This document shows positions 6,261 through 60,786 of a stretch of DNA of 64,000 nucleotides, piece by piece. The stretch is from Gammaproteobacteria bacterium (GTDB taxonomy: Bacteria > Pseudomonadota > Gammaproteobacteria > Pseudomonadales > Halieaceae), in NCBI GenBank assembly GCA_024686215.1, contig JAIBDN010000005.1, positions 4,924 through 68,923 on the forward strand. The letters are read 5' to 3'. Below the pieces are notes generated by a model. It was not told the origin of the DNA and made no database searches. It saw nothing but the letters and a program-made list of their open reading frames with translations. A program made the position numbers and the translations under genes. The number at the start of each line of letters is the position of its first letter. Positions within the stretch are counted from its first letter, which is position 1.

Positions 6261-6911
6261 CTATTTATCCGGCAACTTGAGGCCACAACCCTTAAGGATT
6301 ATACGTGTCAGATTATCCGACACGTCCTCGTAGTCATTACTGGTCAATTTCGACTTACCCAAACCGGCACACACCTGCAGGTTGAAATCAGCATAGTGCT
6401 GGGTCGCACTCCAGATCAGGAAAATCAGGTAATAGGGGTCTACCGCATCCATTTTCCCCTGCTCTATCCAGGCCTGAATGACACCCGCCTTGGCGTTAAA
6501 CCAGGGCCTGAATTCTTTTTTAAAGTAAACACTAAGGTTGGGCGCCCCATGGATAATTTCACTGGCAAAGATTTTTGATGCGTGGGGGTTGCTTCTGGAG
6601 TACATCACCTTGGCATGGATATAGGCACCCAGCGCCTCTGCCGGATCATCATCCGCGGTGATGCGACTGAAAGCATCGTTCCACAACTCGATAACACCGG
6701 TGAGGATAGCCATGTATAGGTCGAGTTTGCTGTTGAAGTAGTAGTGCACGTTGGTGCGCGGAATTCCCGCCCGCTTGGCGATACTGTTTATCGATGCACC
6801 CTGAAAACCATGCTCGGCAAACTCCTGCTCGGCGCTGCGCAGGATCTGGGCTTCATTATCCAGGCGGATACGGCCACTTTTATACACTTTTGCGCGCGAG
6901 TCTTTCGCCAT
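6261..6911 (-). CDS. TetR-family transcriptional regulator, RutR-like
   Basis: 216 aa. N-terminal HTH (INSIAKRAGIPRTNVHYYF). The C-terminal block LIFLIWSATQHYADF nearly matches E. coli RutR (LIFMIWASTQHYADF). It sits directly upstream of the xdh operon. Confidence 0.85.
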   Translation of the reverse strand: MAKDSRAKVYKSGRIRLDNEAQILRSAEQEFAEHGFQGASINSIAKRAGIPRTNVHYYFNSKLDLYMAILTGVIELWNDAFSRITADDDPAEALGAYIHAKVMYSRSNPHASKIFASEIIHGAPNLSVYFKKEFRPWFNAKAGVIQAWIEQGKMDAVDPYYLIFLIWSATQHYADFNLQVCAGLGKSKLTSNDYEDVSDNLTRIILKGCGLKLPDK

Positions 6912-25736: not shown

Positions 25737-26045
25737 TTATTTCTCTGCCACCATATCGGTGCGAATCTGATACTCGGTGATTTCCTGTTCGTACTGCCCG
25801 GATAGCGCAGACACCCTCGCTGCCAGGGCACGATGCTGCCGACTATTCATCACCTTACAATCCATATAGGCCTCTGCCTGCAGTATGTAGCTCTCCGCAG
25901 CGAGTTGCGCCTCATACATGTCCTCTTTGCTTGCGACTGCGCCGTCGGGCAGCACTGGGGCGTCGCCCGGCCTTTTCACAGGGCAGGCAGCAGAGGTATT
26001 CAACGCCGCTAACATCAGGGCGGTTGCGAGTACGGTCTTCATCAT
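25737..26045 (-). CDS. hypothetical exported protein
   Basis: 102 aa. Signal peptide MMKTVLATALMLAALNTSAA, a GGAGG RBS, and two Cys in the mature part. I recognise no family. Confidence 0.6.
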   Translation of the reverse strand: MMKTVLATALMLAALNTSAACPVKRPGDAPVLPDGAVASKEDMYEAQLAAESYILQAEAYMDCKVMNSRQHRALAARVSALSGQYEQEITEYQIRTDMVAEK

Positions 26046-26394
26046 AAGACCCTCCTTTTGTAACTATAAGTAACATTACTTATGTGTTGTTACCAACTAT
26101 CCACATTTAGCCCTGCACACGCAATGCATTTATTATGATTTATTGGCTAAAAATCCCCTTAAAATTACCTGTATTTATTGTGATCCAGTAGCTCATCACA
26201 CGCACCACTTTGTAACATTTAGTAACAAAAAACACCAAGCCTACCCTGAGGCCAGTGTATTCGCCGCAATAGTGACCAACGCACACCCTGCAATTCGAAT
26301 ATACGAGGGAGGAAGGTCGCTATTATCCGCCTGCCGCACAGCCCATGGATGTTCGGCAGTAGACAAGCCTCCCGGTATCCCTAATACTGTATAT

Positions 26395-26414
26395 ATGTAC
26401 AGTACAATCTATAT
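26395..26414 (+). promoter_or_regulatory. LexA (SOS) box upstream of imuB
   Basis: TACTGTATATATGTACAGTA is a perfect palindromic CTGT-N8-ACAG box. It lies ~43 nt upstream of the imuB start. Confidence 0.9.
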
Positions 26415-26456
26415 AATGGGGACATTGCCCCCGCCAAATAATGTCCCACACCCACG

Positions 26457-27893
26457 GTGGACCAGGTGAGCCTGTGGCTTTGCCTGCGCTTTGCGCAACT
26501 ACCCTTGCAATGCCTGAGCCACACCGAAGACCAGCCGGTGATAGTGCTGGCGGGGCAGCGCGTGGTATGCGCCAACGACTGCGCCGCGACTCTGGGCATA
26601 CAAGCGGACATGACCAGCGCCACGGTGCGGGCACTGGCCGGGACCGATCCGGTACAACTGCTGGAAAGAGACGAGACTGCCGAGCAACGCCGCCTGCAAC
26701 AGCTGTGTTGCTGGGCATACAGCATCACTCCCACACTGCATACCTGGCGCAAGGATTGCCTGCAACTGGAAATCGGCGGGTGCCTGAACCTGTTCCAGGG
26801 ACTCGGCGCCCTGCTGGCGGAAGTGCGCAGCGGCATAGGCAAGCGCGGCTATTGCGCGCAATATGGCCTGGCGCCGACGGCCAAAGCTGCATGGCTACTG
26901 TCTTTTGCTGATGACGATACTGCGGCCGCCATACAACACCCCCTGGAAGAGCGCCTCGCCCCCCTCCCCCTGCGCTTACTGGATGACTTCTCCCCCACGA
27001 TAGACTCCCTGCGCCGCGCCGGACTACACTCCCTGGGCGACATCCTGGCGCTGCCACCAGCGGCACTGGCGCGTCGCTGCGGCAAAGCATTCACCCATTT
27101 TCTGCAGCAGATGCTGGGACAGCTGGAAGACTTGCAGATACATTACCAACCGCCCACCACTTTCAGCGACGAATACTGGTTCGGTTACGAGGTGAAGGCG
27201 AATGCTGAATTGTTGCCAGCGGCGCAGTTGTTGCTGCAATCACTGTGCCGTTTCCTGCGCAACACCCAGCTACAGACCAGCGAGATAACCTGGCAACTGG
27301 TAGGTATTGATCACCGGGTACATGAGGTCGCCGTGCGCAGCACCAGCAGCCACAGCGACTGGAGAAACTGGCATCAGCTCACCCGCATTCGCTTTGAACA
27401 ACTGCAACTGACCAACAGCGTGGAAGGCCTGACCCTCACCAGCCGGCAACTGCATGCCGGCGAGCTGGACAGCATCGACCTGTTCAGCCCCGCCAGCCAA
27501 CGCGAACCTCTGGCCGCCCTGCTGGATCGCCTGGGCAGCCGCCTGGGGCTTCAGGCAATCGAGAAAATAGGCTACCGCGACGAGCACCTGCCGGAACTGG
27601 CACTGCATATCAGCAACGACAGCGCCGGGGAAGCGCACGGCAATGAACCAGACTGCGCCCAGCGCCCTTTCTGGCTAATGCCACAGCCCCAGCTCCTGCG
27701 ACAGCAACGCCAGCAGTTGTACTGGAAGCGCGCACTCAAACTGCTATATGGCCCGGAACGTATTGAAGATAACTGGTGGCAAGAGGCGATCAGCCGCGAC
27801 TATTACATCGCCACGGATGACCTGGGGCAACACTACTGGATATTTCGCGATCGACTGGCGCAGCAGTGGTATATCCACGGAGTGTTTGCCTGA
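26457..27893 (+). CDS. imuB: Y-family polymerase-like protein ImuB
   Basis: 478 aa. The LWLCLRF...LPLQ N-terminus is typical of ImuB, it has its own SOS box, and it partners with imuA/dnaE2. Start is GTG 26457 or GTG 26466. Confidence 0.85.
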   Translation: MDQVSLWLCLRFAQLPLQCLSHTEDQPVIVLAGQRVVCANDCAATLGIQADMTSATVRALAGTDPVQLLERDETAEQRRLQQLCCWAYSITPTLHTWRKDCLQLEIGGCLNLFQGLGALLAEVRSGIGKRGYCAQYGLAPTAKAAWLLSFADDDTAAAIQHPLEERLAPLPLRLLDDFSPTIDSLRRAGLHSLGDILALPPAALARRCGKAFTHFLQQMLGQLEDLQIHYQPPTTFSDEYWFGYEVKANAELLPAAQLLLQSLCRFLRNTQLQTSEITWQLVGIDHRVHEVAVRSTSSHSDWRNWHQLTRIRFEQLQLTNSVEGLTLTSRQLHAGELDSIDLFSPASQREPLAALLDRLGSRLGLQAIEKIGYRDEHLPELALHISNDSAGEAHGNEPDCAQRPFWLMPQPQLLRQQRQQLYWKRALKLLYGPERIEDNWWQEAISRDYYIATDDLGQHYWIFRDRLAQQWYIHGVFA

Positions 27894-53293: not shown

Positions 53294-54193
53294 TTGCCCC
53301 GGCACACCGCGCAGTACCGGGGGCGCTTCGCGCCTTCACCTACCGGAAAATTGCACCTGGGCTCATTGATTGCAGCCCTGGCCAGCTATCTGGATGCTCG
53401 TTTTCACCGCGGTAAGTGGCTGGTGCGCATGGAAGACCTGGACCCACCCAGGGAGGAACCGGGAGCGGCACATGCCATTCTCAACAGCCTGCAACAACAC
53501 GGCCTGAACTGGGACGAACCAGTGCTCTGGCAGAGCCAGAACCATGCCAGCTACTGCGCATTACTGGACACACTGGAACAGCAAGGGCATCTGTTCAACT
53601 GCGCCTGCACCCGCGCTCTATTGGGCCCCAATGGCGCCTGCCAGGGGCGTTGTCAGGGGCGCACTCACCCCGCGGAAACAGCCGTAGCAACGCGAGTCAC
53701 TGTGCCACACGGCCACAATGTCGAGTTCAACGATCAACTACAGGGTGTCCAACACAGCCAACTCGGTGAAGATTTCCCGGACTTTGTAGTTAAACGCAAA
53801 GACGGCCTTTTCGCCTACCAACTTGCGGTGGTAGCAGATGACGCCGCTCAAGGTATCACCCATGTGGTGCGCGGCTGCGACTTACTTGACTCGACCGCGC
53901 GGCAGATTTATCTGCAACAACTGCTGGGCTACCGCATACCGCACTACTGCCACCTGCCAGTGATCACCAATGCTCAAGGCCAGAAGTTCAGCAAGCAAAA
54001 CCATGCCCCTGCACTGGATCAAGGTCAGGCTGCGCAGAATCTGCGCCAGGCGCTGCGCTTCCTGCACCAACCCGAACCACCCACTGAGCTGGACAGCGTC
54101 GCGCAAATACTGGACTGCGCTGCAGCGTGCTGGAATTTGCACAGCATCCCGGCCACGGCGGCCATTGCAGCAAGCACTGACGCTTACAGCTGA
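53294..54193 (+). CDS. gluQ: glutamyl-Q tRNA(Asp) synthetase
   Basis: YRGRFAPSPTGKLHLGSL...RMEDLDPPRE...KFSKQN aligns with E. coli GluQRS. TTG start. Confidence 0.9.
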   Translation: MPRHTAQYRGRFAPSPTGKLHLGSLIAALASYLDARFHRGKWLVRMEDLDPPREEPGAAHAILNSLQQHGLNWDEPVLWQSQNHASYCALLDTLEQQGHLFNCACTRALLGPNGACQGRCQGRTHPAETAVATRVTVPHGHNVEFNDQLQGVQHSQLGEDFPDFVVKRKDGLFAYQLAVVADDAAQGITHVVRGCDLLDSTARQIYLQQLLGYRIPHYCHLPVITNAQGQKFSKQNHAPALDQGQAAQNLRQALRFLHQPEPPTELDSVAQILDCAAACWNLHSIPATAAIAASTDAYS

Positions 54194-54263: not shown

Positions 54264-54440
54264 ATGTATATCAATCGAGCACTGCTGCTGGTAGTGGGAG
54301 TGGTGCTGATCTTTTTCCCCGCCGTAGAGAGCTGGATGGTCAGTTCCGAGTCCACCTGGTATCGACCCTATCTTATATGGCTGATGGTTATCGTCGCCGC
54401 TTACTGGAACCAGCGCACCCGGTATCCTGATGAGCTTTAG
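54264..54440 (+). CDS. 58-aa two-TM membrane peptide overlapping the cbrA start (cbrX-like)
   Basis: Below the track's 60-aa cutoff. My translation is MYINRALLLVVGVVLIFFPAVESWMVSSESTWYRPYLIWLMVIVAAYWNQRTRYPDEL. GGAG lies 10 nt upstream. The stop TAG 54438..54440 lies 8 nt inside cbrA (ATG 54430). Confidence 0.6.
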   Translation: MYINRALLLVVGVVLIFFPAVESWMVSSESTWYRPYLIWLMVIVAAYWNQRTRYPDEL

Positions 54441-57414
54441 CCTCACCCAGATACTGCTATTTATCATCGTCTACCTGACGGGATTATTTGGCGTCGCCTA
54501 CCTGGCGGACCGGGGCATCATCACGGAACGTATCACCCGGCATCCGGCAATTTACGTGCTGTCCCTGGGAGTATTCGCGGGAGCAATGGCCAGTAATGGC
54601 GTCATTGATCTGGCTCACCGCTTTGGCTACAACTTCATGCTCTACTATATCGGCGTGGTGGCTATGTTTGTCATGGCCACGGTATTACTGCTACCACTGC
54701 TGCGCCTGTGTCGGGTTCACCAGTTATCTTCTCTCGCGGATGTACTGAGTTTCCGTTTCCGCAGCAGCTGGGTAGGCGCAGGTATTACCATCGCCATGTG
54801 CATCACCCTGCTTCCCCTGCTGGCGCTGCAAATACAAACCGTGGCAGACAGCGTTCATATTTTGTCTGGCAGGGCCGATCATCTGTTCTCCCACGAAGGC
54901 CGACAGGACGGCCTGGCCCTGGTCTTTTGCCTGATCATTACCGTATTTTCCATTTTGTTTGGCACCCGTCATCGCTCTTCCCAGGACCGCAATACCGGTC
55001 TGGTGACAGCGATAGCCTTTGAATCCCTGGTCAAGCTGGGCGCCCTGTCAGTACTCATGATCGCAGCAATATTCCAGGTATTCGATGGCTTCACCGACTT
55101 AGAGCAATGGCTGCTGCAAAACGCCGATCAGCACCAGGCACTGGAGCAGTCAATGCCCGGTGATACCGCTCGCTCCCTGCTGCTGGTGTTTTTTGCCGGG
55201 GCCGTATGCATGCCGCACATATTCCATATGGCCTTTGCCGAAAATACCGATAGCGGCGATCTGCGCAAGGCCACCTGGGGATTACCGCTGTATCTGTTAT
55301 TGCTTAGTCTGCCTATTTTGCCGGTCACCTGGGCGGGCATCAAACTGGGACACGACCTGCCAATAGAATACAGCGGCCTGGCGATTGGCGCTGCACTGCA
55401 ATCCACGCCGCTTAGTGTCGCTGCATTCGTGGCTGGGTTATCTGCCGCCAGTGCCACAATTATTGTCACCACCCTGGCTCTGGCCAACATGTGCATCAAC
55501 CACCTGGTGCTGCCTTCCAGGTTATTGCAGATTGATCGTGAGCAGAATATCTACATCCAGTTGCAATGGCTGCGCCGCTTTCTCATCGGCATATTGATAC
55601 TGGGGGGCTACACTTTTTTCATTAGCCTCAGCGGCACACTGAGCCTTACTCAACTGGGACTGGCGGCCTTCACCGGAACGCTGCAATTTTTACCCGGGGT
55701 GATCGCCACACCCTATTGGCCCGGCGCTAACCGCAAAGGCTTGCTCGCCGGGCTATGCGGCGGACTCGTGATCTGGCTTTTGGGCATGCTACTGCCACTC
55801 GCCAGCGGCTATCAACCCACTATTCTGCTGATGGTGCACGACACATTCTTTGCTGACAGCGACACCCTGTGGACCACCATTGCAATGACCTCACTGGCGG
55901 TAAATACCGCGTTGTTCATACTGGTTTCAGTACTGACACGCACCAGTCAGCAGGAGAAGATCGCGGCGGAGATTTGCTCAATGGACGACCTTGCGCGCCC
56001 CACACGCCAAGCCTTGCCGGTGCAAAGTGCAGCGCAATTCAGCGCCAAACTGGCCCCGGCGCTGGGGGAAAAAACCGCAGAGTCAGAACTGCGACGTGCT
56101 CTTCGCGAATTGCGCTTTTCCGGAGAAGAATCCAGACCCTACGCGCTGCGGCGCCTGCGCGCTCGGCTGGAAGCCAACCTGTCTGGCCTGCTAGGCCCCG
56201 CCGTCGCCCACAGCATTATCGATCGCTGCATTCCCTTCCTGCCCGGCGCGCGCGAGAACATCGAGGATCTGCATCTGATTGAGCGCAACCTTGACGGCGC
56301 CAATTTCCAGCTCACCGGCCTGGCCGCAGACCTGGATAACCTGCGCCGACACCACCGCGAAACTCTGGACAAGTTACCCGTAGGTATATGTTCCATAAGT
56401 AGCGATGGCGAGTTACTGATGTGGAACCGCAGTATGCAGCAAATCACCGGCATCCCGCAGGAAGACGTACTGGGATCACTGCTGGAGTCATTGCCATCAC
56501 CCTGGACAGAATTGATCAGTGAATTTCAACAGGGTGAGACCAACACCCTGCCCAAAGCCGAGGTGCCCTATGAGGACGGCACATCGCGCTGGGTCAGCCT
56601 GCACCGGACCTCGGCGCAGACTGACGCCGATAGACTAAACGACGACATGGTTATTCTTATCGAAGATATCAGCGAACTGGAAATGCTGGAGGAAGAATTA
56701 CTGCACAGCGAGCGTCTGGCCTCCATTGGCCGGCTTGCCGCCGGTGTCGCTCACGAGATCGGCAATCCGGTGACCGGTATTGCCTGCCTGGCGCAGAATC
56801 TCGAGTACGAAGAGGACCCGCAGGAAATTCGCTATATGGCCCAGGACATCCTCAAGCAAACCGAGCGTGTTACCCGTATCGTGGAGTCACTGGTAAACTT
56901 TTCCCACGTCGGCTCTGAGGCCGGGGATACCCGGCTGGCACCTTGCAATCTTGCCGATTGCATTGATGAGGCCGTCCACCTGCTGGGCCTTGACCACGAG
57001 GCCAAGCCCGTGGAATTTAGCAATGACTGTGACCGCGAACTGGTGGTACTTGCCGACAGCCAGCGACTGCTACAGGTATTCATCAACCTGCTGGGTAATG
57101 CCCGGGACGCCTGCGATCTGTTTGGCCGCATTCTCGTTAATGCGCACGTCCAGGGTGACCAGGTCAGTATTACGGTCGAAGATAACGGCTGCGGTATTGC
57201 CACCGAGTTGCAAAGTCAGGTTTTCGAACCCTTTTTTACCACCAAAGATCCAGGGGAGGGCACCGGGCTGGGCCTCGCCCTGGTATTCAGCATCATGGAC
57301 GATATGAATGGCACCGTGCAGCTGGTCAGCCCTGCCGCCGACGGACCCAACCCGGGCACGCGCATCACCCTGCAACTACCCCAGACAAGTTACGGAAACA
57401 CCTTCGAAGTGTAA
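54430..57414 (+). CDS. cbrA: hybrid transporter-like sensor histidine kinase CbrA (SLC5/SSS-like multi-TM domain, PAS, HisKA, HATPase)
   Basis: 994 aa. ~13 TM N-terminal half, H-box AAGVAHEIGNP, N-box NLLGNARDA, and G-boxes DNGCGI and GTGLGL. Synteny is cbrA-cbrB-sRNA-pcnB-folK-panBC, as in Pseudomonas. Confidence 0.85.
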   Translation: MSFSLTQILLFIIVYLTGLFGVAYLADRGIITERITRHPAIYVLSLGVFAGAMASNGVIDLAHRFGYNFMLYYIGVVAMFVMATVLLLPLLRLCRVHQLSSLADVLSFRFRSSWVGAGITIAMCITLLPLLALQIQTVADSVHILSGRADHLFSHEGRQDGLALVFCLIITVFSILFGTRHRSSQDRNTGLVTAIAFESLVKLGALSVLMIAAIFQVFDGFTDLEQWLLQNADQHQALEQSMPGDTARSLLLVFFAGAVCMPHIFHMAFAENTDSGDLRKATWGLPLYLLLLSLPILPVTWAGIKLGHDLPIEYSGLAIGAALQSTPLSVAAFVAGLSAASATIIVTTLALANMCINHLVLPSRLLQIDREQNIYIQLQWLRRFLIGILILGGYTFFISLSGTLSLTQLGLAAFTGTLQFLPGVIATPYWPGANRKGLLAGLCGGLVIWLLGMLLPLASGYQPTILLMVHDTFFADSDTLWTTIAMTSLAVNTALFILVSVLTRTSQQEKIAAEICSMDDLARPTRQALPVQSAAQFSAKLAPALGEKTAESELRRALRELRFSGEESRPYALRRLRARLEANLSGLLGPAVAHSIIDRCIPFLPGARENIEDLHLIERNLDGANFQLTGLAADLDNLRRHHRETLDKLPVGICSISSDGELLMWNRSMQQITGIPQEDVLGSLLESLPSPWTELISEFQQGETNTLPKAEVPYEDGTSRWVSLHRTSAQTDADRLNDDMVILIEDISELEMLEEELLHSERLASIGRLAAGVAHEIGNPVTGIACLAQNLEYEEDPQEIRYMAQDILKQTERVTRIVESLVNFSHVGSEAGDTRLAPCNLADCIDEAVHLLGLDHEAKPVEFSNDCDRELVVLADSQRLLQVFINLLGNARDACDLFGRILVNAHVQGDQVSITVEDNGCGIATELQSQVFEPFFTTKDPGEGTGLGLALVFSIMDDMNGTVQLVSPAADGPNPGTRITLQLPQTSYGNTFEV

Positions 57415-57504: not shown

Positions 57505-58932
57505 ATGAAGAAAATCCTCGTGGTCGAAGATGAAACCGTCATTCGCACCGCCTTGCGACGTTTGCTGGAACGCAATGATTACCACATCAGCGAGGCGGGA
57601 TCGGTACAGGAAGCTGAGACCCAGCATAGCCTGGGAGATTTCGATCTGGTTATCAGCGACCTGCGACTGCCCGGGGCGCCTGGCACTGACCTGATCAAAA
57701 AGGCTGGCGACGTACCGGTGCTGATCATGACCAGCTACGCCAGCCTGCGCTCCGCAGTGGATTCGATGCGCATGGGTGCCGTTGACTATATTGCCAAGCC
57801 CTTCGACCACGGCGATATGGTAAATGCGGTAGAGCGCATCATCGCCGACCACCCCACCCCCCGTGCAGAGCAGGAAAAAGAGCGAGCCGCCAGCAGCGGC
57901 AAGCCAACCAGTATGACCGGTATAGTCGGCAACTGCCCCGCTATGCTGACCTTGTTTGACCATATCGAGAAGATCGCCCCTACCGACTCCACGGTGTTGG
58001 TGCTGGGCGAAACCGGTACCGGCAAGGAACTGGTTGCGCGCAGCGTCCACGAACACAGTTTGCGTGCTGGCAAAACTTTGATTTCGGTAAACTGCGCGGC
58101 TATACCCGACACCCTTATCGAATCCGAATTATTCGGCTATGAGAAAGGCGCATTTACCGGTGCCAACGCCAGCCGTATGGGACTGATAGAAGCCGCCGAT
58201 GGTGGCACCCTGTTCCTGGATGAAATCGGCGAACTACCGATGGAAGCACAGGCGCGGCTACTGCGCTTTATTCAGGAAGGGGAGATCCGCCGCATAGGCT
58301 CTGTGCACTCGCGCAAAGTCAACGTCCGCCTGATTTGTGCCACCCACCGCAACCTGCAGCAATTGGCTGCAGGGGGCCTGTTCCGGCAAGATCTTTTCTA
58401 TCGTATCAACGTGCTGCGACTTTCATTGCCGCCGCTGCGCGAGCGCGGCAAGGATATTCTGCATCTGGCTGAGCGCATGTTGCAAAGCCAGGCCGAAAAA
58501 CTGGGCAGAAAACTAATGAGCTTGTCACCACGCGCCATCCAGGCGATTACCACCTACCAATGGCCTGGCAATGTACGCGAACTGGAGCACGCCATAGAGC
58601 GTGCCGTGGTCCTCTCAGATGACCAGGAAATCGACAATGAGGCACTGGGCATAGACCTGGAGTTGGTCAATATTAACCGCATCCGCGGACAGCAGGGTAT
58701 TACCATGCCCCATAGTAAGCCGGCACTGGGTGGCAGCAATGAACCTCAGGAGGATTTGTCGCTGGAAGACTACTTCCAGCGCTTCGTGCTGGAGCACCAG
58801 GATTCCATGAGTGAGACGGAATTGGCACAAAAGCTGGGGGTTAGCCGCAAATGTCTATGGGAGCGCCGGCAGCGATTTGGTATTCCGCGCAGTAAATCCG
58901 GCACTGCCGGGCGACGCAAGAGTCATGCATAG
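57505..58932 (+). CDS. cbrB: NtrC-family sigma-54-dependent response regulator CbrB
   Basis: Receiver domain ([11 protein letters not shown]), AAA+ domain with GETGTGKE and the GAFTGA sigma-54 contact loop, and a C-terminal HTH. Confidence 0.9.
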
Positions 58933-58943
58933 CCCGGAAACAA

Positions 58944-58993
58944 GCGTTACCCTTTCCCTTAAGCGTTACATTAAGCGGAGTATTTAGGTAACA
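58944..58993 (+). promoter_or_regulatory. candidate enhancer (UAS) half-sites for CbrB
   Basis: Half-sites are GCGTTAC (58944), GCGTTACA (58963) and the inverted GGTAACA (58987). They lie 75-125 bp upstream of the sigma-54 promoter. The half-sites resemble the Pseudomonas CbrB site TGTTAC-N-GTAACA, but the spacing (18 nt) differs from what I recall (14). Confidence 0.4.
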
Positions 58994-59068
58994 CACAGCA
59001 CTTTCAAACACCTGGCTAACGCCTCGGAATATAGATAACTCGTTGTTTTACAATTATTTTATTAAAAC

Positions 59069-59084
59069 TGGCACGAGCAATGCA
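59069..59084 (+). promoter_or_regulatory. sigma-54 (RpoN) promoter
   Basis: TGGCACGAGCAATGCA compares with the consensus TGGCACG-N4-TTGCW. The GG and GC elements have exactly the canonical spacing. Confidence 0.8.
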
Positions 59085-59094
59085 TTTATGAGCG

Positions 59095-59386
59095 CGGTAC
59101 TAAAAATAAAAATAACAGATACCGCAATAAAAATAACATTCTGCACTATGGACCTGGATGGGGAAGTTCTCTTCCCCTTCAATTTCCGCCTTTGGGTCGG
59201 GATCACGCCAGTTTGCGTCTGGCGCCAGTATTTGCCCAGTAAAGGTAAAAAGTTACACAAATAACTGTTTGGGCATGCATATAAAAAGTGTTTTTATATG
59301 TGCCAATAACAATAACAGCACTAAGAAATAACAATAACTCCTACGTGAGACCTGGATGGGGAAAACTCTGTTTTCCCCTTCATTCA
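59095..59386 (+). ncRNA. crcZ: CrcZ-like A-rich Hfq/Crc-sequestering sRNA (two modules)
   Basis: Starts ~12 nt after the sigma-54 -12 element. Holds seven AAUAAC repeats within AANAANAA-type tracts. Has two related GC hairpins (59160..59177 and 59358..59378), each preceded by GACCTGGAT and followed by TTCAWTY. No credible ORF. Same genomic position as Pseudomonas crcZ. Confidence 0.6.
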
Positions 59387-59442
59387 CGCCCCTTAGCAGC
59401 CTGCGATGAAGCACCACCTGCAACGACGATTCACTCACTTCT

Positions 59443-60786
59443 GTGCTAAACTGCGCCGCAGTCAAATCAACGCCACAGGCCCATAATCGTTTGAACGTTA
59501 TCCCCCGGGATCAACACTGTATCTCCCGTAAGAATATCAGTGACAGTGCATTGAAGGTCATGTCTCGCCTGCGCAGCAAGGGCCACCAGGCCTATCTTGT
59601 AGGCGGCGCTGTGCGCGACCTGCTGCTGGGCGGACACCCCAAAGACTTCGATATCGCCACCGACGCCACTCCGGAGGCGATTCACGCGCTGTTCAGAAAC
59701 TCACGCATTATTGGACGACGTTTTCGTATTGTTCACGTGCGTTTTGGCCGCGAGATCATTGAAGTCACCACCTTTCGCGGGCACCACGACAGCGGCGACC
59801 AGGACAACAGTGAGCGCGGTGGCAACCACTCCCGGCAATCTGCCAGTGGGTTGCTACTGCGCGACAATGTCTACGGCACACTGGAAGAGGATGCGGTGCG
59901 CCGTGACCTGACGGTGAATGCCCTGTACTACGACTCCGGCAAGTTCGAAGTATTCGATCATGTACACGGCTTGCAGGACCTGCAACGCAAGAATATCTGC
60001 GTGATAGGAGATCCGGCGGTGCGCTTTCGCGAAGACCCTGTGCGCATGCTACGGGTACTGCGCTTCGCCGCAAAACTGGACTTCAGCATCGACCCGGGCA
60101 CCGCCAAAGCTATTCCGGGATGCTCCGCCCTACTGGGGGAAATTCCAGCAGCGCGCCTGTTTGATGAATTCCTCAAACTGTTTCTGGGAGGACATGCCGC
60201 CGCAACGCTGGAAAAATTACTGGAATACGACCTGCTGCAGTACCTCTTTCCACAAAGCAATGCCAGCCTGCGCAAAGACAGCCACGCACTTGCTCTGGTG
60301 CGCGCGGCCATGGGCAATACCGACCTGCGCATAGCGCAGGGCAAGCCGGTAACGCCTGCATTTATCCTCGCCGCACTGCTGTGGCCAGCCGCCAGCCATC
60401 TCGCGCAGCATAGGCAGCAGCAGGGCGACCCTCCCATGGTGGCCATGCACAGCGCTGCGCAGCAAACGATTTCCGAGGCGGCGCAGCATATTTCCATACC
60501 CCGGCGCTTCAGTCAGCCCATGCGTGAAATCTGGGAATTCCAATTGCGTCTGCAACGCCGCCAGGGGCGCAAAGCAGCAGAACTGGTTGATCACCGACGT
60601 TTTCGCGCAGCCTATGATTTCCTGCTGCTCAGGGAGCAGGCGGGAGAGGAAACGGGTAATTTGGGTAGTTGGTGGACCGAGTTCCAGGAGTTACCCATGG
60701 AGCAGCGCCTGGAACAGGCCGCCGCCAACAAGGGCAAATCGGACGGACGCAGAACGCGCACACGTCGCTCCCACAGCGATACATGA
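59443..60786 (+). CDS. pcnB: poly(A) polymerase I
   Basis: VIPRDQHCISRKNISDSALKVMSRLRSKGHQAYLVGGAVRDLLLG aligns with E. coli PcnB. The GTG start is uncertain. Confidence 0.9.
   Translation: MLNCAAVKSTPQAHNRLNVIPRDQHCISRKNISDSALKVMSRLRSKGHQAYLVGGAVRDLLLGGHPKDFDIATDATPEAIHALFRNSRIIGRRFRIVHVRFGREIIEVTTFRGHHDSGDQDNSERGGNHSRQSASGLLLRDNVYGTLEEDAVRRDLTVNALYYDSGKFEVFDHVHGLQDLQRKNICVIGDPAVRFREDPVRMLRVLRFAAKLDFSIDPGTAKAIPGCSALLGEIPAARLFDEFLKLFLGGHAAATLEKLLEYDLLQYLFPQSNASLRKDSHALALVRAAMGNTDLRIAQGKPVTPAFILAALLWPAASHLAQHRQQQGDPPMVAMHSAAQQTISEAAQHISIPRRFSQPMREIWEFQLRLQRRQGRKAAELVDHRRFRAAYDFLLLREQAGEETGNLGSWWTEFQELPMEQRLEQAAANKGKSDGRRTRTRRSHSDT

Follow-up and report, generated by a model that had tools for sequence, protein, structure and literature searches.

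The CrcZ RNA of Pseudomonas aeruginosa and Pseudomonas putida (Rfam family RF01675) is a sponge of about 400 nucleotides (nt) that occupies the slot between cbrB and pcnB, is driven by CbrB and sigma-54, and titrates Hfq through several A-rich tracts in unpaired regions. CrcY of P. putida and P. fluorescens, CrcX of P. syringae, and the CrcZ and CrcY of Azotobacter vinelandii are CbrB/sigma-54-driven, A-rich sponges as well; CrcY and CrcX lie elsewhere in the genome, not in the cbrB spacer. It is established that Hfq binds ARN repeats with its distal face. A second kind of sponge is represented by CsrB, RsmY and RsmZ, which present GGA in hairpin loops, bind CsrA/RsmA and are transcribed from sigma-70 promoters under GacA/UvrY. 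Reviews call the CbrAB system and the cbrA-cbrB-crcZ arrangement unique to the Pseudomonadaceae (PMC8871633, PMC6296734). Here we describe a locus outside this stated range, in a bacterium of the Halieaceae (Cellvibrionales): the spacer at positions 58933–59442 of a 64,000-nt stretch of contig JAIBDN010000005.1 (assembly GCA_024686215.1), hereafter called the window. With a probability that we put at roughly 0.78, this spacer encodes the Cellvibrionales counterpart of Pseudomonas CrcZ, a divergent ortholog that would act as a CbrB/sigma-54-driven sponge for Hfq or possibly Hfq/Crc. The assignment builds on position, promoter architecture, A-rich motifs and a weak reciprocal similarity in sequence and structure. 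It agrees with an earlier note on the same DNA, made from the letters alone, which had proposed a divergent family member sharing the logic and the position of CrcZ.

Position is the first of these arguments. A genome scan with the whole CbrB protein returned 80 loci, mostly NtrC paralogs, among them 12 orthologs from Halieaceae, Cellvibrionaceae, Cellvibrionales and Endozoicomonadaceae. Because the full-length scan was swamped by the paralogs, only the C-terminal 109 residues of CbrB were used for a metagenome scan, which yielded 80 more loci. The order cbrB-spacer-pcnB is found in most loci that extend far enough. Six metagenome loci of Pseudomonas type carry an Rfam-validated CrcZ (216–367 bits) in this very slot and served as the Pseudomonas-type references. 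The predicted RNA of the window lies on the same strand as its neighbors, directly after cbrB and before pcnB, and thus shares the slot with CrcZ.

The promoter region provides a second comparison. CbrB sites have been described as TGTTAC-N12-14-GTAACA-N15-19-GTAACA, with the subsites F1, R1 and R2, and a role of IHF at crcZ promoters has been noted (PMC8871633). The window contains the following elements in this order:

58945–58994, + strand: CbrB upstream activating sequence (UAS), CGTTAC-N14-GTTACA-N18-GTAACA, which fits the published consensus
58945–58950, 58965–58970 and 58989–58994, + strand: UAS subsites F1 (CGTTAC), degenerate R1 (GTTACA) and R2 (GTAACA)
59036–59048, − strand: IHF-like site between UAS and promoter, reading TAA-CTCG-TTGTTT on the + strand (consensus YAA-N4-TTGATW)
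59069–59084, + strand: sigma-54 promoter TGGCAC-N5-ATGCA, with the −24 GG at 59070–59071 and the −12 GC at 59082–59083

The promoter reads TGGCACGAGCAATGCA with the GG-N10-GC spacing that the earlier note had seen, and the half-sites it had placed upstream are there as well, GTTAC at 58946 and 58965 and GTAAC at 58989. A GTTAC-N34-40-GTAAC pair occurs once in the window, 0.11 times being expected. CbrB-type sites precede a sigma-54 promoter, and they do so at the same distances as in Pseudomonas: F1, R2, the IHF-like site and the −24/−12 elements are spaced as at the validated CrcZ loci. An alignment of 19 sequences that runs from the window to these loci needs gaps of 1 bp only and leaves GTTAC, GTAAC, TGGCA and TGC invariant; the latter two are also invariant in 20 Halieaceae sequences. 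In most orthologous loci, including those of Pseudomonas type, the block from F1 to R2 spans 46–47 bp and the distance from UAS to TGGCAC is 121–124 bp (mostly 122–123). The composite pattern GTTAC-N34-40-GTAAC-N68-76-TGGCA was found in 64 loci, of which 63 have it on the + strand immediately behind cbrB; the 68 NtrC-paralog loci all lack it. A TTG(A/T)TT block is kept at the IHF-like position in the relatives and in most Pseudomonas-type loci, so that a putative IHF site can be assigned to the YAA-N4-TTGATW match. As a separate observation, the Rfam family P36 (RF01679) lies between the cbrB stop and the crcZ promoter in three Pseudomonas-type loci (L143, L148 and L153, at ~2350–2418), where it overlaps the CbrB sites; no counterpart of P36 appears in the window.

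What would be transcribed from this promoter is an RNA with two similar modules, split by a GC-rich region that is not conserved. Each module consists of A-rich tracts followed by an irregular hairpin, which is composed of an outer helix, the 13-nt box GACCUGGAUGGGG and a GGGG/CCCC stem. The predicted small RNA (sRNA) and its parts are:

59096–59388, + strand: predicted CrcZ-like sRNA of ~290 nt, its 5' end taken from the promoter offset and its 3' end placed after hairpin 2
59096–59123, + strand: 5' hairpin GGUA/UACC with an (ARN)6 tract (59102–59119) in its loop
59126–59137, + strand: single-stranded (ARN)4 tract AAUAAAAAUAAC, most columns of which are invariant in 40 relatives
59149–59188, + strand: module-1 hairpin with outer helix, box GACCUGGAUGGGG (59151–59163), stem GGGGAAG/CUUCCCC (59160–59177) and tail UUCAAUUUCC
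59189–59304, + strand: variable GC-rich central region, then a semi-conserved AU-rich hairpin (59271–59304)
59305–59338, + strand: two (ARN)5 tracts, AAUAACAAUAACAGC and AGAAAUAACAAUAAC, predicted to be single-stranded and nearly invariant in relatives
59345–59387, + strand: module-2 terminal hairpin with a GUGAG/UUCAC outer helix, box GACCUGGAUGGGG (59349–59361) and stem GGGGAAAAC/GUUUUCCCC (59358–59378)

The 5' end is placed near 59096 because the six Rfam CrcZ matches start 27 nt after the T of TGGCAC, an offset that was adopted here. A start at this position also fits the lack of covariation in the two outer pairs of the 5' hairpin. The seven AAUAAC copies that the earlier note had counted correspond to seven AATAAC at 59111–59338 of the + strand; elsewhere in the 64 kb, the two strands together have 22. 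All five matches to AANAANAANAA in the window lie inside the spacer and on the + strand, where 0.85 would be expected. Element-bearing loci carry 5–25 AAnAAnAA motifs on the + strand versus 0–4 on the − strand. The predicted RNA thus carries several A-rich motifs on the transcript strand, among them four (ARN)4-6 tracts; mostly predicted to be unpaired, these are located in a hairpin loop or in single-stranded stretches of the centroid fold. The segment 59094–59392 folds with −85.9 kcal/mol (z −4.26), and the two GC hairpins named in the earlier note are recovered at 59160–59177 and 59358–59378. Hairpin 1 is accepted by a terminator scan that hairpin 2 fails, so that short and long isoforms are possible; the module-1 hairpin may be a partial terminator, and the module-2 hairpin is, in this structural model, the probable terminator.

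Is this structure conserved in the relatives? For an assessment of covariation, 40 module-1 sequences were aligned with MAFFT, without fitting to any structure. RNAalifold on this alignment gave the GC hairpin only; the 5' hairpin and the outer helix were set by hand and tested against shuffled and slid controls. In the resulting module-1 structure 83.5% of the cells pair, and compensatory changes occur in 12 of the 19 pairs. The covariation score is 0.282, compared with 0.206 after shuffling (none of 500 shuffles scored as high) and at most 0.144 in the slid controls. Covariation is strong in the four inner base pairs of the 5' hairpin, for example CG 18 / UA 14 and AU 16 / GC 6 / UA 5. For the module-2 hairpin RNAalifold reports 11 pairs, three of them with compensatory changes. 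In the central region neither sequence nor length is conserved among 20 relatives, with the exception of a GGGCAU...UGUGUUUUUAUA block. The earlier note had suggested examining the spacers of relatives for conservation of promoter, AAUAAC tracts and hairpins. All three are conserved: TGGCA and TGC do not vary, the A-rich tracts are nearly invariant and the hairpins covary.

Beyond architecture there is a trace of similarity to CrcZ itself. The top hit of the Rfam CrcZ model in the window is a local match in which 59094–59189 corresponds to model positions 278–377 (E 2.3e-4), that is, to the 3' domain of CrcZ; a second, weaker match, likewise below threshold, covers module 2 at 59303–59384. The score is 40 bits in the relative L136 and 31 bits in L115, and across 14 related loci no Rfam family other than CrcZ reaches E<0.01. 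In the opposite direction, model R1 was trained on the 40 module-1 sequences, none of them from Pseudomonas. In 16 Pseudomonas-type loci it recognizes the final ~105 nt of validated CrcZ, with 28–37 bits, each time on the + strand and at the same position. Within the 64 kb the same model matches 59090–59200 and 59290–59401 and nothing else, which means that no second copy of the RNA was found in the window. The match to module 2, a sequence outside the training set, reaches 51.6 bits. One or two modules were also detected in 14 other Cellvibrionales-type loci that had not been used for training. We read this reciprocal detection, modest as its scores are, as a sign of distant homology to CrcZ instead of mere analogy. 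The shared part would be the CrcZ 3' domain, with a hairpin whose loop is A-rich, a single-stranded A tract and then a GGGG/CCCC hairpin.

The RNA also differs from CrcZ. With ~290 nt versus ~400 nt and a core of AAUAAC/AAUAAA, the RNA is shorter and differs in its motif, as the earlier note had remarked; in addition, it is made of two similar modules around a variable GC-rich region, each with a box GACCUGGAUGGGG that Pseudomonas CrcZ lacks. The likeness to CrcY, CrcX and the Azotobacter sponges lies in the common drive by CbrB and sigma-54 and in a copy number that varies by lineage, which here takes the form of one unit, two fused modules or tandem genes. In contrast to CrcY and CrcX, the extra copies in the relatives of the window RNA stand in tandem within the same spacer. 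With CsrB, RsmY and RsmZ it has in common that a two-component system would drive an RNA whose repeated short motifs titrate a global translational repressor. Its repeats, however, are ARN and suited to the distal face of Hfq, and its promoter is of the sigma-54 type. The only hint of overlap consists of the two GGA triplets per conserved box. An identity as a CsrB-type RNA was considered and rejected, the repeat being AAUAAC (ARN) and GGA being confined to the two boxes, where it is predicted to be largely paired.

Several observations weigh against the assignment to CrcZ. The best score of the Rfam CrcZ model, which the earlier note had suggested as a check, is 24 bits in the window; the model thus does find a local match, but one far below its gathering score of 95. 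At gathering level no Rfam family hits the whole window or the 12 genome-scan orthologs (L001–L012), and among 20 loci searched next, hits are confined to those of Pseudomonas type. The statement that there is no obvious primary-sequence identity to CrcZ was nevertheless slightly too strong in view of the sub-threshold match, and it holds with respect to the cut-off. Similarity scores between the RNA and CrcZ are inflated by A-rich low complexity and by the GC hairpin. The sigma-54 hexadecamer alone is not rarer than chance (4 found versus 4.3 expected, allowing one mismatch), and the weight of the promoter comes from its conservation and context. The R1 subsite is one base off the consensus in the window and degenerate in Halieaceae according to the cross-family promoter alignment. 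The poor U tail of hairpin 2 makes the 3' end uncertain. Finally, a tblastn search found neither hfq nor crc in the window or in the fetched loci (the Crc query was the PAO1 sequence, identical to PDB 4JG3), and Crc is a possible partner only. As judged from its sequence, the element is a divergent RNA of the same kind as CrcZ and extends this kind to a new order-level lineage; it fails the Rfam threshold and agrees with CrcZ in position, promoter and motifs.

Exact-sequence matches identified three of the Rfam-negative loci as Spongiibacter (L124), Zhongshania (L128) and Teredinibacter purpureus (L136). The element occurs in Halieaceae (the marine OM60/NOR5 clade), Spongiibacteraceae (Spongiibacter, Zhongshania) and Cellvibrionaceae (Teredinibacter). 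Its size varies. The Halieaceae type has two modules. Three loci (L115, L120 and L122) have a single unit of ~95 nt with a terminator that ends in six or seven U; five (L003, L119, L121, L123 and L127) have two complete genes in tandem, each with its own UAS and sigma-54 promoter; and one (L005) has a repeat array of ~250 nt with ~25 AAnAAnAA motifs. In four further loci (L006, L007, L008 and L011), which stem from a Cellvibrio metagenome-assembled genome (MAG), an Endozoicomonadaceae MAG and unclassified gammaproteobacteria, the slot beside cbrB holds other open reading frames (ORFs) or no A-rich RNA. L007 has a module-like match at 6346–6440, ~1.9 kb downstream of cbrB and at the end of the fetched stretch. 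Because these four deviate, the linkage between cbrB and the RNA is not universal.

For the window, the limits of the spacer depend on the start of pcnB. The interval 58933–59442 runs from the cbrB stop to the GTG of the longest pcnB ORF. In the public gene calls for five contigs that encode an identical activator protein, pcnB starts at 59551 in one case and at the TTG at 59491 in the other four, and with the latter start the true gap is ~558 bp. The same gene calls leave the spacer empty. At the scales of 300 bp (GC 0.373) and 500 bp (GC 0.416) the spacer is the most AT-rich stretch of the window, whose overall GC is 0.57; the earlier note's claim to that effect stands at these two scales and fails at 200 bp, where 26031–26230 is lower in GC (0.345). 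At the downstream border lies one more element:

59442–59452, + strand: extended −10 element TGTGCTAAACT downstream of the sRNA, probably the promoter of pcnB, overlapping the GTG of the longest pcnB ORF

The motif TGTGnTAnACT is conserved at this place in nearly all Halieaceae loci. Judging from this and from the gene calls, pcnB is probably transcribed from a promoter of its own, and its protein probably begins further downstream than the longest ORF would imply.

How else could the spacer be read? Two alternatives concern the boundaries of the transcript. The two modules may be separate sRNAs in the manner of CrcZ and CrcY, module 2 being transcribed from a promoter of its own or processed from read-through that starts at cbrB or at module 1. 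The terminator-like hairpin 1 and the tandem genes of the five relatives would suit such a division, and read-through into crcZ from the cbrB promoter has been reported in Pseudomonas (PMC8871633). Between the modules of the window, however, there is no second UAS and no correctly spaced GG-N10-GC, and no sigma-70-like promoter was found on the + strand, which makes two separate RNAs unlikely. The candidate TGGCGCCAGTATTTGCC at 59220–59236 was rejected as a second sigma-54 promoter, its spacing being N11 and its sequence not conserved. Or else the A-rich transcript could be a regulated 5' untranslated region of pcnB, through which CbrB would control poly(A) polymerase with the hairpins as attenuators. 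The RNA does lie directly upstream of pcnB and in the same orientation, and read-through is plausible, as the U tract of hairpin 2 is poor and the terminator scan picks up hairpin 1 alone. Against this stand the conserved extended −10 element between hairpin 2 and the pcnB start, which argues for a promoter of pcnB's own and thus for more than a leader, and the canonical terminators of the three single-unit loci. L010 has no pcnB downstream, in L007 1.9 kb separate the RNA copy from cbrB and the fetched stretch contains no pcnB, and the matching Pseudomonas arrangement yields a free sRNA (PMC8871633). We regard a pcnB leader as very improbable.

The remaining alternatives grant a conserved element and dispute what is conserved in it. 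The box GACCUGGAUGGGG recurs on the 5' side of each module hairpin (59151–59163 and 59349–59361, + strand) and is exactly conserved in 51 loci of several families, Halieaceae and other Cellvibrionales, without exception on the + strand. Its 3' pairing partner is less conserved, and because this partner varies, pairing alone fails to explain the conservation. Together with the two GGA triplets that it contains, this might hint to a site for a second partner: a GGA binder of the CsrA/RsmA type, a nuclease that frees units of ~95 nt, or a pairing target. In that case the RNA would not simply be a diverged CrcZ but a dual-input regulator, an idea to which we assign little probability and which, if true, would tie the Hfq network to another global network. 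A related proposal, which we find similarly improbable, has the RNA act mainly or additionally through the boxes, by target pairing or a CsrA/RsmA-type binder, with the A tracts only recruiting Hfq as a chaperone. It shares the same support in box conservation beyond structural need and in the GGA triplets; yet no site complementary to the box was found within the window, the box is absent from the Pseudomonas-type loci and is largely buried in the predicted hairpin, and the A-rich tracts are equally invariant and have a number and length that suit titration. The conservation could, in principle, also reflect coding for a small protein, for the + strand of the spacer contains ORFs of 73, 57 and 53 amino acids and ATG triplets within the conserved box recur in relatives. 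Among 20 relatives, however, these ORFs differ in presence, length and frame or are missing altogether; gene callers report nothing in the spacer; the central region has indels and lacks conservation; and conservation peaks in A tracts rich in UAA. With no ORF kept across these relatives a coding function was rejected as most improbable, and the absence of a credible ORF asserted in the earlier note is upheld.

The genes around the spacer confirm that the slot belongs to a cbr locus. The gene order is gluQ-cbrX-cbrA-cbrB-[spacer]-pcnB-folK-panB-panC, of which NCBIfam names gluQ (53294–54193), pcnB, folK, panB and panC. The cbr genes are:

54264–54440, + strand: cbrX, an ORF for a membrane peptide of 58 amino acids, with an 11-nt overlap with the start of cbrA
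54430–57414, + strand: cbrA, a sensor kinase of 994 amino acids with a transporter-like SLC5-STAC N-terminus followed by PAS, HisKA and HATPase domains
57505–58932, + strand: cbrB, an NtrC-type sigma-54 activator of 475 amino acids with receiver and AAA+ domains

Residues 1–608 of CbrA match the SLC5-STAC part of Pseudomonas CbrA (PDB 10ED_A) with 568 bits (E 3e-169), and Pfam places PAS, HisKA and HATPase_c at residues 643–986; a hydropathy scan gives 15 hydrophobic windows, some of them overlapping, and the Pfam SSF model does not match the N-terminus of CbrA. The 58-residue CbrX matches chain X of the same entry from end to end (E 2e-11). According to its depositors, PDB 10ED is a cryo-electron microscopy structure of the Pseudomonas CbrX-CbrA SLC5-STAC assembly (PMC13022988). 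The fusion of SLC5-STAC to PAS and kinase domains and the overlapping cbrX are therefore both present here, and the translationally coupled peptide CbrX appears to be conserved outside the Pseudomonadaceae. CbrB contains Response_reg, Sigma54_activat and AAA_lid_14 (Pfam) and shares 62–64% identity with the proteins whose genes directly precede an Rfam-validated CrcZ (loci L137–L160). The domain set is the expected one and the gene order the same, as for an ortholog of Pseudomonas CbrB. Its closest matches are proteins of Halioglobus and of Halieaceae MAGs, from which the organism is a member of the Halieaceae and no Pseudomonas. NCBIfam holds no curated CbrB model, and its best match is ntrC, below the cut-off of that model. 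Based on the match of CbrA to PDB 10ED, the presence of cbrX and the identity of CbrB to CrcZ-adjacent proteins, the flanking genes can be regarded as true cbr genes.

Two further observations were made elsewhere in the window. At ~26060–26260 on the − strand, in the most AT-rich 200 bp (GC 0.345), there are five GTTAC/GTAAC hexamers, arranged as TGTTAC-N4-TGTTACA and GGTAACA-N12-TGTTAC-N5-GTTACA. They precede a − strand ORF (25737–26045, 102 amino acids) whose N-terminus resembles a signal peptide; a GG-N10-GC promoter is not apparent there, and the orientation of the hexamers is unlike that of F1-R1 in CbrB sites. Close by, at 26400–26420, a perfect palindrome resembling a LexA/SOS box, TACTGTACATATATACAGTA, is located just upstream of a + strand ORF (26457–27893, 478 amino acids). 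This ORF might be under SOS control and encode, for instance, an imuB-like or Y-family polymerase.

Taken as a divergent CrcZ, the element suggests the following course of events. On poor carbon sources phosphorylated CbrB would bind the F1 and R2 sites at 58945–58994, and a bend of the DNA at the IHF-like site would allow it to meet the sigma-54 RNA polymerase at 59069–59084. Transcription would begin near 59096. The resulting RNA of ~290 nt, possibly accompanied by a short form of ~90 nt that ends at hairpin 1, would expose its four (ARN)4-6 tracts, within a hairpin loop or as unpaired stretches. These tracts would bind the distal face of Hfq, plus Crc if the organism has it. Hfq would in this way be drawn off the A-rich sites in catabolic mRNAs, and translational repression would be lifted, which amounts to a relief of catabolite repression. 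That the RNA is transcribed, that this depends on CbrB and RpoN, that Hfq or Crc binds it and that it has this physiological effect is inferred from the features described above.

It thus appears that the CbrAB-CrcZ cassette, comprising cbrX, cbrA, cbrB, a CbrB/IHF/sigma-54 promoter and an A-rich RNA, also occurs in Cellvibrionales. A full-text literature search of incomplete coverage returned no paper in which CrcZ, CbrB or Crc appears together with Cellvibrio, and for CrcZ and Marinobacter nothing of relevance. What is corrected here is the stated taxonomic limit of the system, the mechanism itself being known already; GTDB, for its part, already puts Halieaceae, Spongiibacteraceae and Cellvibrionaceae near the Pseudomonadaceae. 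Since the current Rfam model misses the RNA in these three families, their genomes are probably unannotated for it, and the alignment and model presented here can serve as seed data for a broader model of the RNA family. From the ~60 natural variants, with their single modules, double modules, tandem genes or long arrays, one can read which features a CrcZ-type sponge cannot do without. For the organisms themselves, the finding means that the 'reverse' catabolite repression known from Pseudomonas, exerted via the titration of Hfq, may operate in abundant marine heterotrophs and polysaccharide degraders.

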